Shown: positions 1 through 4,554 of the stretch, piece by piece
How the letters are laid out: each line of letters opens with the position of its first letter
Position numbering within the stretch: position 1 is the stretch's first letter
Origin: Laetmonice hystrix
Taxonomy: Eukaryota
Assembly: GCA_965235115.1 (NCBI GenBank)
Contig: OZ249436.1
Location: 30,506,001-30,570,000, forward strand
Direction of reading: 5' to 3'
DNA length: 64,000 nt
Notes under the pieces: generated by a model
The model's database searches: none
Seen by the model: only the letters and a program-made list of their open reading frames with translations
What the model was told of the DNA's origin: nothing
Program-made: the position numbers and the translations under genes

Positions 1-3000
1 TTGGTGTACCACTCGGATCATCATTCTCTGATGGATGGGGCCTATCAGAATCGGCAGGAGTTTCCGTCACCGCTGATGAGGCTGACACCGTTGGAAGAAT
101 AAACTGCACGAATAGAGTCTTCTCACACGCCACCATTTCGCAGTCAGCCTCCTTTATGTCACCATGACAATGAGGCTTGTGTTGAGTGAATGTAGAATTC
201 ACAGAGAAGAGTCCTTTGCACTTGTCACAACAATAATAACAGAAGTCCAAGGAACCTGTAAAACAGCAGAAAAACAATGTCAGCAGGCAGACTGAATAAA
301 AATTATTTAAATATGACTCAATCACACAGAAACTAGGGGGATAAGGGTATCAACTGATTCAATGCATATGTGGACTCCATGACACGACATTTATGATACT
401 TCACAAAATCCAAACGGGATGTCTGTGAGATTTTGTACAGAAAATGTAACAGATTTCAATTTGTTAAATATATTTTTTTATTGTCATAAGTACTTTCCCA
501 TATACTGGCTAGATCCCACTGCTGGTCAAGGAATAAAGTAATAAAGGAATAAATATGTTATGTTGGGGTAGCTGTTCGGTTGAAGACTTGAAGACGCGTT
601 GTTGGGATTCCAATATACTTTATTGTGGTGAGGATTTCCTCTCCACTCTGGACACTCTTCTCTACAATACTGCCGATTCCCCTTGCGTCTCCTACTATAT
701 AGGCCCTTCTCTCGGGCATGCAGGTGCGCGTCTATAGGGCCATAAAGGTATAACTCTTTTGTAACCGTGGGGGCAATTACGCTAACTCATGTATATGTAA
801 TCCCTTAATGGGAGTGACCAACAATAAGGTTGTAAAACTGTATGTGTGGGCAAGGTGAAACCTGACCATAACATTACCCCCCGACACGATAAAAAGTGGC
901 AGTCCCTTGCCACAGATAGGCCGATAAACGTGTATAAAAAGTTTTACACAACCTTGGCTTCTATAGAACTTTCACTTGGGTAAACCTGCCATAGATTTGT
1001 AAAATAATTATATGTTACACTGGATGTACATATTGCTTATCGCATTGCTCGACACATTAAATCATCAAAGTCCATGTCAACTTAAAAATACATACATAAA
1101 AGTGACAGTGTGATAACATACTAAAATATACACGAAGGACAAATATACGCACTTATACTTCACAACAATCTCGCAGGTGTATCAACGAGTTAGACAAAAG
1201 CTTTCTGGTTATCCAAAATTTGGTTCTTACACAGTTGATTAGGGACTTCCCCAAAGTTATCGCATGGCTTGTAAGTTGTCTGTAAACAACGACACTGTCA
1301 CGATAACCTACTGATATGTGTATGCATCCTTTGATGCGAGTAATTACAAAAACTGTGAAAATAATATGAGACTTACAAACCTTACTTATATGTGCAAATG
1401 CGGCTATGTGAATTAACCAAATATCCAAATGTTACAAAGCTTTAGAGGCTAGAAAAAGTATAGGGGGGAAACCCAATATACCTAAGGTAATATGCATGAA
1501 AGCAACAAGCAGTTAACTGATACAATGATACGCAACAATGAAATAATGTCATACTCAGTATCACTAAAGCTATATAATTTTCGCAACAGAAATATAGATT
1601 TTATACACCTCAAAAGTACCAAAATTGAGAATTCATAAAATTGACTTAATGTACTGTTAATGGTAATAACCATAAGGTGATGAAAAATGTGTAGGATGGC
1701 TGTACATAGGTTGTGGTACATATGGTCCATACACAGGTTGTGGACATGTTGGGTATGGTCCAGTATCGTATTCTTCATAAGAGTCCTCACCGTGGGAATC
1801 ATAATCTTCCGTGCTGTGATCGAAGTCACAATCACAGAAGAAAACGTTGTGGTGATCGTGAAGAACCATGGTCACCTTAAGTTCCTCCTCGAATATAAAA
1901 GGTGGTAAGGTCCCAAGAGGAACTTTGTCCATAAGACGATAATGACAACCATTGAATTTAACCAGGAATGTTGATTGGATGTCGCTGTTTTCACAATACC
2001 TTTGTGATATACCTTCTGACAAGAATTTCCGCTGCTGCCTTAAAATCGGTTTGAGCTTAATGTCTCTTGTAAAAACTTTGGTCCCAAAAGAAATATGGAT
2101 TGGTAGAACAGCAGTCGAAGAAAAGTTATTTGGAAGTATATCATTGAGAAATGGAATGTCACATAATCGTGAGTGCTGGAAAAAGTCATTTGTGAAAAAT
2201 GGATCTGCAAAGTCTGTAGAAAAAGCTGTTTGGGTTGCACTCTCACGGCTGACACATAAAACATTGTGCTGCCCAAGAGCTACCTTCATACTGTCAATCT
2301 CTTTGTCTTTTAGAGCCAGGTCGTTGGTTAGACGGGTGATTGTTTTAAGGGATTCCTCTAACTGCAGCTTTAGTTTAACGATGTCCGCGTTCTGTTTGAT
2401 GGCTGTGTCGGCGAGTATCTTGATGTTTGCCTTGAATTTAGAAAAGTCATCTTGCCCTTTGTTGACGAATTGAGCACAATTATTACGTAGTGCGACAGCT
2501 TCATGTCTCAGGGAAGAGACAGTTCCCTGAATTTTTATCAGATCTTTAGTTGTATCTCGCTGTGGTTCCGTTTGACTGGATGTTTCTGTCATATGTAAGA
2601 TGGTTTGGGCCTGAGAATGAACATATAGAACTGGCTTTGGTGGAGAATATTGAGATACCTGAAGGTGTTCTTTCGGTGCTTTGGTGTACATGTAACGTTG
2701 TAGAGTTTCACTGTCCAGGTCGGCAAATGGTAGCATCATCATGACTGACTTTCTGCGAAGGAATTCCTCCATACGACGCTTGTCACGAGCACGCTGTGTT
2801 TTTGGCTTAAAGGTGACTTGCCTTTCATGGGTGGTGAACGACCTGGCAAAACACATCCGTCCAAAGTGTCCATCACGACCACACTTGGCGCACTGCTGGT
2901 TGTAGGCTGGACAGAAGTGGCGGCTTAAACAAGGAAAGCCACATCTGTAGCATCTGCGCTGGACGTGCTGGTTCATATTGTTGAATCTTGTCCTCTGGTG

Positions 3001-4554
3001 TTCCATGTCTTCAGGTACGGGAAAGCGTGTAAAGGTGAAATTTACACGATCCGGGTTCTATCACCAGTGTTATGTTGGGGTAGCTGTTCGGTTGAAGACT
3101 TGAAGACGCGTTGTTGGGATTCCAATATACTTTATTGTGGTGAGGATTTCCTCTCCACTCTGGACACTCTTCTCTACAATACTGCCGATTCCCCTTGCGT
3201 CTCCTACTATATAGGCCCTTCTCTCGGGCATGCAGGTGCGCGTCTATAGGGCCATAAAGGTATAACTCTTTTGTAACCGTGGGGGCAATTACGCTAACTC
3301 ATGTATATGTAATCCCTTAATGGGAGTGACCAACAATAAGGTTGTAAAACTGTATGTGTGGGCAAGGTGAAACCTGACCATAACAAATAAAGGGACTGAT
3401 CAATAAATGTATAATCTGCACAAGAATTGATATAAATTACCAATATATCAATGTGTCATCCCAGCCCTAGGCTAACTCAATGCTGACAGACAATCAGAAA
3501 GATACAGGGGGTGCACCCATTTGGGACCCTTGGCAGCCATTTTTCGATCCCAGCACCACACCTTTGTGGCTTGATTTCTCTGTAGACTCAACGTTTATCC
3601 CTTTTTGTATCAGAATATTATCTTAATATGATTATCTTAGTTTGACTAATTACTGAATCCAAACAAATGTGGGTTAGAGTTAGCAGGGGTGTGCCCATGC
3701 TGGGTGGTGCCAGCCAGGCCTGCCCAGCACCAATTTTAGCCGCCCAGGACAAAATTAAAAGGTTTAGGTGCTGCCCAGCAGGAATTTTTATTAGGCCTAT
3801 CACCTGATATATATGTGGGTATAGGCCTATATCAACTTCTCATATCGTCTCTTGTTCATGTGACTGCAATATTGGATTCTTATTGGATGATGTCTGGCAG
3901 CAGAATAGCAAATTATCTAATTAGTGCCTAATTAACAACAATTTTCTGACTAGACTAACACTAACCCTAGGCCTAACGTTAACCCTAACCCAAACATAAT
4001 TGTTTTGTGTCGGTAATAAGTCAAACTATTTCTTCTGCCGTCTAATGTAATGGCAGAATTAATTGAGAAAAACCACTGCGTAGGCCTATTAATTAGAACC
4101 GTGATAATTGGATAGTCGGCTATTTAGCCATATAAAACAGAATTGAAGCTTAATGGTCACATGACCCCGCCATTTGCTGTCTAAATATATTTATAGGAAT
4201 ATACACTGCCAAAAAATTTCCGGGGGAGGACCCCCGACCCCTGCCTCTCGCGGTAGAGTAACATCATGTCACGATTTTGATTGCCATGGGGTCCCTCACT
4301 TTTTTGGGGCTTCCGAAACTGGTGCCCCTCCCCCATGGTAAATCTCTGCTGAGTGACACTGACATTGGGACCTCAAGTCAAGTTTACATGGACTCATGCA
4401 TGGCATGCCCAACATGCCTGCCCCACAATTCCAGGCGCACGGTAATGAACCGTTTGTGAACGGTTGGTCGATTGTGTGCTAGATATCGGAAATAAGCGCC
4501 TTATCAAGCCTCCAGATACAATCAAGAAATGGATGAATAAAAAATCTTACCCAT
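1..4554 (-). CDS. Partial spliced gene, probable zinc-finger protein: exon with ATG-G at 4554-4551, intron 4550-256, exon 255-<1 (continues off window)
   Basis: Minus strand ATGG|GTAAG at 4554-4546; polypyrimidine acceptor TTTTTCTGCTGTTTTACAG| ending at 256; phases match. Product MGSLDFCYYCCDKCKGLFSVNSTFTQHKPHCHGDIKEADCEM... has CxxC-x3-F-x8-H-x3-C (C2HC/C2H2-like) spacing and is open to position 1. Linking these two exons is inferred. Confidence 0.5.
556..873 (-). repeat. 3' LTR (318 bp)
   Basis: Appears identical by eye to 3068-3385; minus-strand TATA-like TATATAG at ~700 and AATAAA at ~620. Confidence 0.93.
1657..3006 (-). CDS. 449-aa gag-related ORF: N-terminal tandem zinc knuckles, central coiled coil, unknown C-terminal domain, Tyr/Pro-rich tail
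   Basis: CYRCGFPCLSRHFCPA and CAKCGRDGHFGRMC (CX2CX4HX4C), as in Gypsy gag nucleocapsid; heptad-rich IKQNADIVKLKLQLEESLKTITRLTNDLALKDKEIDSMK; no protease, RT or integrase motifs seen. Confidence 0.8.
   Translation of the reverse strand: MEHQRTRFNNMNQHVQRRCYRCGFPCLSRHFCPAYNQQCAKCGRDGHFGRMCFARSFTTHERQVTFKPKTQRARDKRRMEEFLRRKSVMMMLPFADLDSETLQRYMYTKAPKEHLQVSQYSPPKPVLYVHSQAQTILHMTETSSQTEPQRDTTKDLIKIQGTVSSLRHEAVALRNNCAQFVNKGQDDFSKFKANIKILADTAIKQNADIVKLKLQLEESLKTITRLTNDLALKDKEIDSMKVALGQHNVLCVSRESATQTAFSTDFADPFFTNDFFQHSRLCDIPFLNDILPNNFSSTAVLPIHISFGTKVFTRDIKLKPILRQQRKFLSEGISQRYCENSDIQSTFLVKFNGCHYRLMDKVPLGTLPPFIFEEELKVTMVLHDHHNVFFCDCDFDHSTEDYDSHGEDSYEEYDTGPYPTCPQPVYGPYVPQPMYSHPTHFSSPYGYYH
3068..3385 (-). 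repeat. 5' LTR (318 bp)
   Basis: Direct repeat of 556-873, TG...CA termini, followed on the minus strand by a TGG-starting PBS-like sequence. Confidence 0.93.

Follow-up and report, generated by a model that had tools for sequence, protein, structure and literature searches.

A young non-autonomous LTR element of Laetmonice hystrix that appears to encode a capsid-less, nucleocapsid-like protein

A stretch of 64,000 nucleotides from the Laetmonice hystrix assembly GCA_965235115.1 (contig OZ249436.1, positions 30,506,001 to 30,570,000 of the forward strand), called the window here, carries on its minus strand, at window positions 556-3385, a long terminal repeat (LTR) element of 2,830 bp with a single open reading frame (ORF) of 449 amino acids (aa) and no pol. 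In the reading that we favor, to which we assign a probability of roughly 0.55, this is a young, coding, non-autonomous Ty3/Gypsy-type element that specifies a capsid-less, nucleocapsid-like protein and is moved in trans by the mechanism proposed below. That the element belongs to this class and has a selected capsid-less protein is probable. The role of packaging adaptor specifically is put forward more tentatively, somewhat short of even odds.

Results and Discussion

Structure of the element

The two LTRs are both 318 nt long and 100% identical, with the ends TGTTAT...ATAACA, and the 4-bp target site duplication (TSD) AATA is found on both sides of the element (Table 1). The ORF comprises 449 codons (3006 to 1657). 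When the internal region was shuffled 2,000 times, no stretch free of stops exceeded 197 codons. Four ATGs are found upstream of the ORF, and every one of them is located 5′ of the TATA-like box. The ORF ATG would therefore be the first AUG of a transcript whose start site is presumed from that box. In the six frames of the element there was no frame long enough for pol except the ORF and its antisense overlap, no Pfam pol domain was detected in the element, and the 3′ region showed neither a frame nor a similarity pointing to pol. Neither the 5′ leader (z −0.83) nor the 3′ region (z 0.20) had a better predicted fold than its shuffled versions. The single Rfam row was at chance level (E 0.31), and the 3′ non-coding region had no Rfam match. 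A first-pass annotation, made from the letters of the window, had described a young element with identical 318-bp LTRs, an intact TSD, a stretch resembling a PBS (primer binding site), and one intact 449-aa ORF, and all of these were borne out, the PBS starting 1 nt past the 5′ LTR. The site resembling a polypurine tract (PPT) that it also described is weak, a run of only six G that ends 3 nt short of the 3′ LTR.

Insertion age and other copies

Contigs from four public runs of one sample were mapped to window positions 1-4000. This sample may be the window's own source and is not taken as independent support. In three of the four runs, an empty-site contig joins position 550 to position 3385, skipping 2,834 bases (2,830 + 4), which correspond to the element and one 4-bp copy of the target. 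This shows a polymorphic insertion site and a TSD of 4 bp. In one run, X1, the summed depth was 251-856 across the internal bins versus 39-66 in the outermost flank bins, and single near-identical contigs had depths of 245 (3′ region) and 294 (ORF). Since contig depth is not a copy number, multicopy is used here only in the sense of several copies. The element is a recently inserted, polymorphic member of a multicopy family.

Runs X1-X3 also contained diverged contigs, with many differences and gaps, and an LTR depth above the internal depth, which suggests older subfamilies and solo LTRs. In one diverged contig from these runs, 189 bases of the coil region are replaced by 60.

The encoded protein and its conservation

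Only 18 residues precede the first Cys of the protein, and the start is the same in the three families described below. The first of the two Cys/His knuckles, CX2CX7HXC, is kept in all three families, and the second, CX2CX4HX4C, is canonical and matched Pfam zf-CCHC with E values of 0.003-0.02, below the curated cut-off. Matches of the knuckle region to retroviral nucleocapsids were weak (E 0.36-8.6). The knuckles are followed by a basic helical motif, designated the RD motif. AlphaFold2 was confident only for the helix at aa 150-245, where the predicted local distance difference test (pLDDT) score was mostly 85-94; it was below 50 for most of the model. Two copies of aa 146-252 were modelled as a parallel, in-register dimer with a score of 0.52 (best control, 0.02), a pLDDT of 80, and at least 97% of contacts in agreement between runs. 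This passed the mark used for dimer scores; in the reference sets, 17 of 29 solved pairs from eukaryotes attained that mark, as did none of 30 single chains. Sequence searches of the PDB returned only coil-type and weak nucleocapsid rows, and the Pfam, profile, and PDB searches detected no likeness to gag other than a knuckle. Taken from its motifs and models, the protein is probably RNA-binding and dimerising.

A search of 5.8 billion proteins yielded 1,249 candidates, among which four clusters are related to the ORF. They make up two additional families, one of 18 members and one of 9+1+1, located on different ENA contigs; some of the members are intact and many are broken. Their identity to the ORF is about 50-62%. 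All three families share an equivalent start Met, seen in the third one through P0004 and P0005, and an equivalent His/Tyr end. Identity to the two families, respectively, peaks in the knuckles (31 and 26 of 39 residues), the RD motif (33 and 34 of 48 in this region), and the C-terminal beta-rich domain (Table 1); in the coil, 45 and 43 of 96 residues are identical, and the values are lowest in the linker (18 and 13 of 37) and the tail (Table 1). A frame that stays open, together with this regional pattern of identity across about 50% divergence, would indicate purifying selection. Its retention in these two families means that the ORF is not the product of a one-off deletion. Searches for the DNA around the relatives gave nothing in JGI metagenomes, IMG/VR, or GTDB genomes, and ESM Atlas had no usable match to the protein. 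No RNA sample was listed as carrying the element, which has no bearing on its expression. When the N-terminal alignment was used to search proteins of 561-2,000 aa, none of the 4,158 candidates was a Gag-Pol or other longer protein with this N-terminus, although such evidence is weak.

The copies in the four runs were also compared. Of 342 differences, 40 were listed, and 18 of the 40 are inside the ORF. Among the differences listed, five of the eight ORF variants in high-depth contigs were synonymous versus 21-27% expected (P 0.013-0.04), and two of the ten in low-depth single contigs were synonymous, as expected of decaying copies. The latter figure is compatible with an ORF that is a captured host gene or a chance passenger of no benefit to the element. 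This explanation is very improbable, as the 1.84 billion representatives searched hold no named or host-like homologue (10 matches in total), the frame is open across about 50% amino acid divergence with domain-wise conservation, and the relatives are present on different contigs in many copies, near-identical ones and broken ones.

The first-pass annotation had proposed a coding non-autonomous LTR family, and had named a one-off deletion of a normal gag-pol element and a neutrally evolving ORF as the outcomes that would speak against it. What was found instead is a multicopy, polymorphic family, and an ORF whose conservation extends over three families with unchanged start and end. Most of its description of the protein stands as well: no capsid-length region precedes the knuckles, the coiled coil is at aa 150-245, and an acidic, then Tyr/Pro-rich tail occupies aa 395-449. 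Two items needed revision. The CCHC knuckles placed in the first 55 or so residues are indeed located there, at aa 19-52, with only the second one canonical, and the globular region of about 150 aa gave way to a conserved beta-rich core of about 96 aa (aa 299-394).

A sister family with the RD motif

A profile free of the knuckles was compared with the 1.84 billion representatives and produced 10 matches. Five were the families already found and two, P0033 and P0035, carry the RD motif; P0031, P0032, and P0034 were dropped as repeat or coil noise. A search with P0033 gave 49 sister clusters among 1,121 candidates. The sister proteins have a fixed start (MER), followed by the segment LPVVLYLTLP, the RD motif, a coil, and, at the C-terminus, three to four knuckles, with no capsid-length segment left over. 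The profile-profile probability between the sister and the window families was 97.5. When the RD motif was considered alone, 34 of the 49 sister proteins scored above the best of 980 shuffles, while none of the 49 did so for the beta domain. As the RD motif is common to both, the beta domain is absent from the sister family, and the knuckles are at opposite ends, modules have been shuffled between the window and sister families. No curated-level Pfam match was present in the 23 sister clusters scanned.

The sister proteins (P0033-P0083 and the cluster members P0084-P0184) are found on ENA contigs of up to 6.7 Mb. Seventeen of the 76 proteins bearing LYLTLP were called with an in-frame extension ahead of the usual start. 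Seven of these 17 leaders, from three clusters, contain the exact translation of a 15-base PBS for tRNA-Ala, a peptide found nowhere in the coding bodies (25,210 residues). Although indirect, this evidence is specific and suggests that a PBS also lies directly ahead of the sister ORFs. They start about 85-100 nt behind it, and the window ORF starts 60 nt behind the start of its own PBS. Several sister leaders also share the reading VREL or MNL/MNF just past the PBS-like peptide, which suggests a conserved leader motif.

The beta-rich C-terminal domain

The predicted order of elements in aa 299-394 is strand-strand-helix-strand-strand-strand-strand, with pLDDT below 60 in both the full and the domain-only models. 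His355, His383, Cys391, and Cys393 are invariant in the three families. A Foldseek search with the full model returned a weak list, mostly ubiquitin-like or beta-grasp chains (E 0.05-0.96; root mean square deviation (rmsd) 11-27 Å), and Pfam Sde2_N_Ubi_vert matched in register (E 0.17-0.19). A ubiquitin-like fold of aa 299-385 was not upheld as an assignment: structural alignment confirmed no ubiquitin-like chain, a profile against 96 distinct ubiquitins did no better than shuffles (115 of 150 scored as high), and the Sde2_N_Ubi_vert match was absent when the relatives were searched or the boundaries widened. A ubiquitin-like domain stays a lead, and an unlikely one. The likeness of the domain-only model to PCNA clamps (Z up to 4.7, rmsd 3.4, 88 aligned) was within noise. 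None of the fold searches listed a capsid structure, the rows being coils and noise; with a mean pLDDT of 45, the models leave room for one.

These data bear on the possibility that the protein has no packaging role and instead acts against silencing by the host or brings in a host factor, for example in RNA protection, in export, or as a ubiquitin-like decoy. Few parts of the protein are as well conserved as the beta domain, its strand-helix order fits a beta-grasp, and the weak Foldseek and Pfam hints point in the same direction. The high rmsd of the Foldseek rows, the lack of structural confirmation, the clamp-like and noise matches of the domain-only model, the Pfam hint that does not recur, and the ubiquitin profile that behaves like shuffles all argue the other way, as does the sister family, which lacks this domain. 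We consider such a function unlikely.

Primer type and helper candidates

To assign the primer, tRNA ends were taken from the supplement of PMC13524379, with CCA added by inference; the tRNA-Ala end used is the one in that list, and no tRNA was detected in the window. Against this end plus CCA, the window PBS has 13 matching positions out of 15 and a single bulge. Annelids, molluscs, corals, and Daphnia have env-carrying Gypsy elements with PBSs of the tRNA-Ala type, and the PBS of one of them, the polychaete Ty3/Gypsy element Slim_16, differs from that of the window by one extra base (PMC13524379). These elements carry gag, pol, and env, and have the PBS type in common with the window element (PMC13524379). 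The tRNA-Ala-primed env-carrying Gypsy elements are candidates for the helper lineage, linked to the window element through the PBS. Four PBSs of polychaete env-carrying Gypsy elements resemble that of the window, each with two mismatches from any listed tRNA (PMC13524379). The degenerate primer site may, judging from these, be a lineage trait.

The position of the ORF raises another explanation, partly compatible with the one that we favor: it could have been an accessory gene at the 5′ end ('ORF0') of an autonomous Gypsy element primed by tRNA-Ala, with the window family as a deletion derivative in which no other gene was kept. The protein might then serve the lineage as a whole and not the window element in cis. 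The short distances between PBS and ORF in the window and sister families are in agreement with this idea, the sister ORFs are known as proteins only, without downstream DNA, and an LTR depth higher than the internal depth allows for longer elements with the same LTR. However, the 783-nt 3′ region has no pol remnant and its depth is close to that of the ORF (245 versus 294 in X1), a 70-aa read-through in P0013 and P0015 showed no protease-like motif by eye in one frame, and the available part of PMC13524379 describes only gag, pol, and env. Among the alternatives this is the least improbable, although we consider it unlikely.

Comparison with known elements

Large retrotransposon derivatives (LARDs) have an internal region without protein coding. 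TRIMs (terminal-repeat retrotransposons in miniature), which include the animal elements Helenus and Ajax, possess two LTRs, a PBS, and a PPT; Helenus generates 4-bp TSDs and depends on Gypsy (PMC10886601). TRIMs are shorter than 1 kb and non-coding, whereas the window element is 2.8 kb and coding, although both are non-autonomous with two LTRs (PMC10886601). Among coding elements, RLG_Quinta of wheat is non-autonomous with an ORF homologous to its partner's gag (PMC11302176), and single-ORF Copia families of Ectocarpus are non-autonomous with a gag-homologous ORF (PMC12477816). The window element is likewise coding, non-autonomous, and presumably dependent on a partner, but its ORF showed no likeness to gag other than a knuckle.

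Also comparable are the zebrafish BHIKHARI elements Bik-1 and Bik-2 and chicken ENS-1/ERNI, which are young and multicopy, have one ORF and no pol, and are mobilised in trans (PMC12067270). They resemble the window element in being young and multicopy, and in the single ORF, the absence of pol, the coiled coil, and the trans mobilisation, which for the window element is presumed. Their ORF is a Gag with a coil and a capsid, whereas the window protein has its knuckles first, no capsid-length region, and a beta-rich domain (PMC12067270). As Bik-1 shows, an unusual Gag can be hard to recognise: its ORF was uncharacterised until structure prediction gave a coil and a capsid (PMC12067270). The window ORF could similarly be an unusual Gag, one that forms a particle of its own and whose capsid has diverged beyond recognition, in keeping with a single ORF at the gag position and a model with pLDDT below 50 over most of its length. 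However, there are only 18 residues ahead of the knuckles, the single long helix forms one uninterrupted coil, and in the sister family no part of the protein is left for a capsid. Capsids are helical, whereas the C-terminal domain is predicted to be beta-rich in both models. A cryptic capsid is therefore quite improbable.

Mag and Troyka were considered and rejected. In gag of the Mag lineage, two knuckles are joined by C-P-A and the first is irregularly spaced, as in the window protein. Mag was ruled out on its TSD (5 bp, in 20 of the 21 rows seen for Culex Mag elements, versus 4 bp in the window) and its primers (Leu or Ser versus Ala type) (PMC3286476). Troyka was ruled out on its CG ends and 3-bp TSD (PMC12440569). 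No element like that of the window appears in the available portions of PMC8220671 or PMC6238403. The literature covered, which leaves most subscription papers, Repbase, and Dfam outside its scope, contained no capsid-less knuckle-coil element; such families may be deposited already. The coding non-autonomous LTR elements found described have a capsid-bearing Gag or a gag-homologous ORF, and gag-only elements are already known.

Proposed mechanism

According to the reading that we favor, the element would be transcribed by RNA polymerase II from the 5′ LTR, and the ORF would be translated from the first AUG. The coil would dimerise the protein, so that two pairs of knuckles and two basic RD helices at one end could grip RNA, which most likely is that of the element itself, while at the opposite end of the dimer the beta domains might contact a partner. 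Capsid, reverse transcriptase (RT), and integrase would be provided in trans by an autonomous tRNA-Ala-primed Gypsy element that makes 4-bp duplications. The ORF would be kept because it improves the spread of the element itself, most likely as a nucleocapsid-like adaptor or chaperone for helper particles. A selfish element is expected to retain an ORF only if its spread is aided, and an adaptor favoring its own RNA is then the simplest fit to the parts. Loading of RNA into a helper particle by this protein is plausible from its predicted anatomy, i.e., knuckles, basic helix, and dimeric coil.

Several points weigh against this interpretation. The match of the PBS is imperfect and the PPT, with its six G, is weak. 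None of the listed contigs spans the element, and other copies are not thereby shown to be pol-less. The synonymous count comes from 18 ORF sites among 40 of 342 differences, the division into high- and low-depth groups was made post hoc, and the two groups are not significantly different (Fisher P 0.14). All of the relatives are known as proteins only, and their LTR context comes from translated leaders. RNA binding is a prediction, and the coil dimer may have passed its mark through likeness to solved coils. The helper is presumed; none was seen, no genome-wide search having been carried out.

If the favored reading is correct, a non-autonomous element whose only product, kept under selection, is an RNA-binding, dimerising protein represents another way of exploiting a helper, and the question of how the RNA of a non-autonomous LTR element enters the particle of another element becomes testable. 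Pipelines that require a gag or pol domain would miss such elements. With the RD motif as a handle, at least 49 more protein clusters can be searched for. As a more speculative extension, which we consider doubtful, the window element and the RD sister family could form a clan of coding satellite LTR elements, widespread among invertebrate genomes, in which Gag is replaced by a modular capsid-less adaptor (the order of RD helix, coil, and zinc knuckles being shuffled) that brings their RNA into helper particles, and the helpers are tRNA-Ala-primed Gypsy elements, possibly env-carrying.

Table 1. Parts of the LTR element and its flanks (window positions; identities are to the two other families).
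Feature	Position	Strand	Comment
TSD AATA, left copy	552-555		Empty-site joint skips 2830+4 bases
3′ LTR, 318 nt, same as 5′ LTR; AATAAA at LTR position 250 (window 619-624)	556-873	-	
3′ non-coding region, 783 nt, T-rich (37.5% T)	874-1656	-	Pol remnant not detected
Weak PPT-like run of six G, ending 3 nt ahead of the 3′ LTR	877-882	-	
Single intact ORF, 449 aa (P0001)	1657-3006	-	ATG is the first one 3′ of the LTR TATA-like box
aa 395-449, tail, acidic then Tyr/Pro-rich, poorly conserved	1660-1824	-	Identical 18/55, 11/55
aa 299-394, conserved beta-rich domain	1825-2112	-	Identical 73/96, 63/96
aa 150-245, long coiled coil	2272-2559	-	Modelled as parallel in-register dimer
aa 64-104, basic helical motif RD..R..F..RKS....PF..LD, common to sister family	2695-2817	-	
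aa 19-52, two Cys/His knuckles, CX2CX7HXC and CX2CX4HX4C	2851-2952	-	
Perfect 8-bp hairpin directly behind PBS; weak candidate packaging signal	3026-3048	-	132/2,000 shuffles fold equally well
PBS, degenerate tRNA-Ala type (13/15 positions and one bulge)	3049-3066	-	Starts 1 nt after 5′ LTR
5′ LTR, 318 nt; TATA-like TATATA at LTR position 173 (window 3208-3213)	3068-3385	-	
TSD AATA, right copy	3386-3389		

Other features of the window

A decayed RT element was observed on the minus strand at 54538-59123. It includes a frame at 55919-57508 with an RVT_1 match (E 1e-5) and, at 57487-58803, a gag-like frame of 438 aa, together with direct repeats that are split (54538-54716/54900-55078 and 54733-54906/58950-59123), a layout that we take to recall Ngaro/PAT-type DIRS elements. 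A tblastn comparison between it and the LTR element gave no meaningful match. An uninterrupted frame for a rhodopsin-family G protein-coupled receptor is located on the plus strand at 19549-20739 (7tm_1, E 7e-16). To the right of the insertion, positions 3620-4000 consist of a very high-copy repeat with CTAACC-like units and a summed contig depth of up to about 150,000. Tandem arrays are found at 8936-10051, 34307-36315, and 52046-53065, with units of 68, 32, and 45 bases, respectively.

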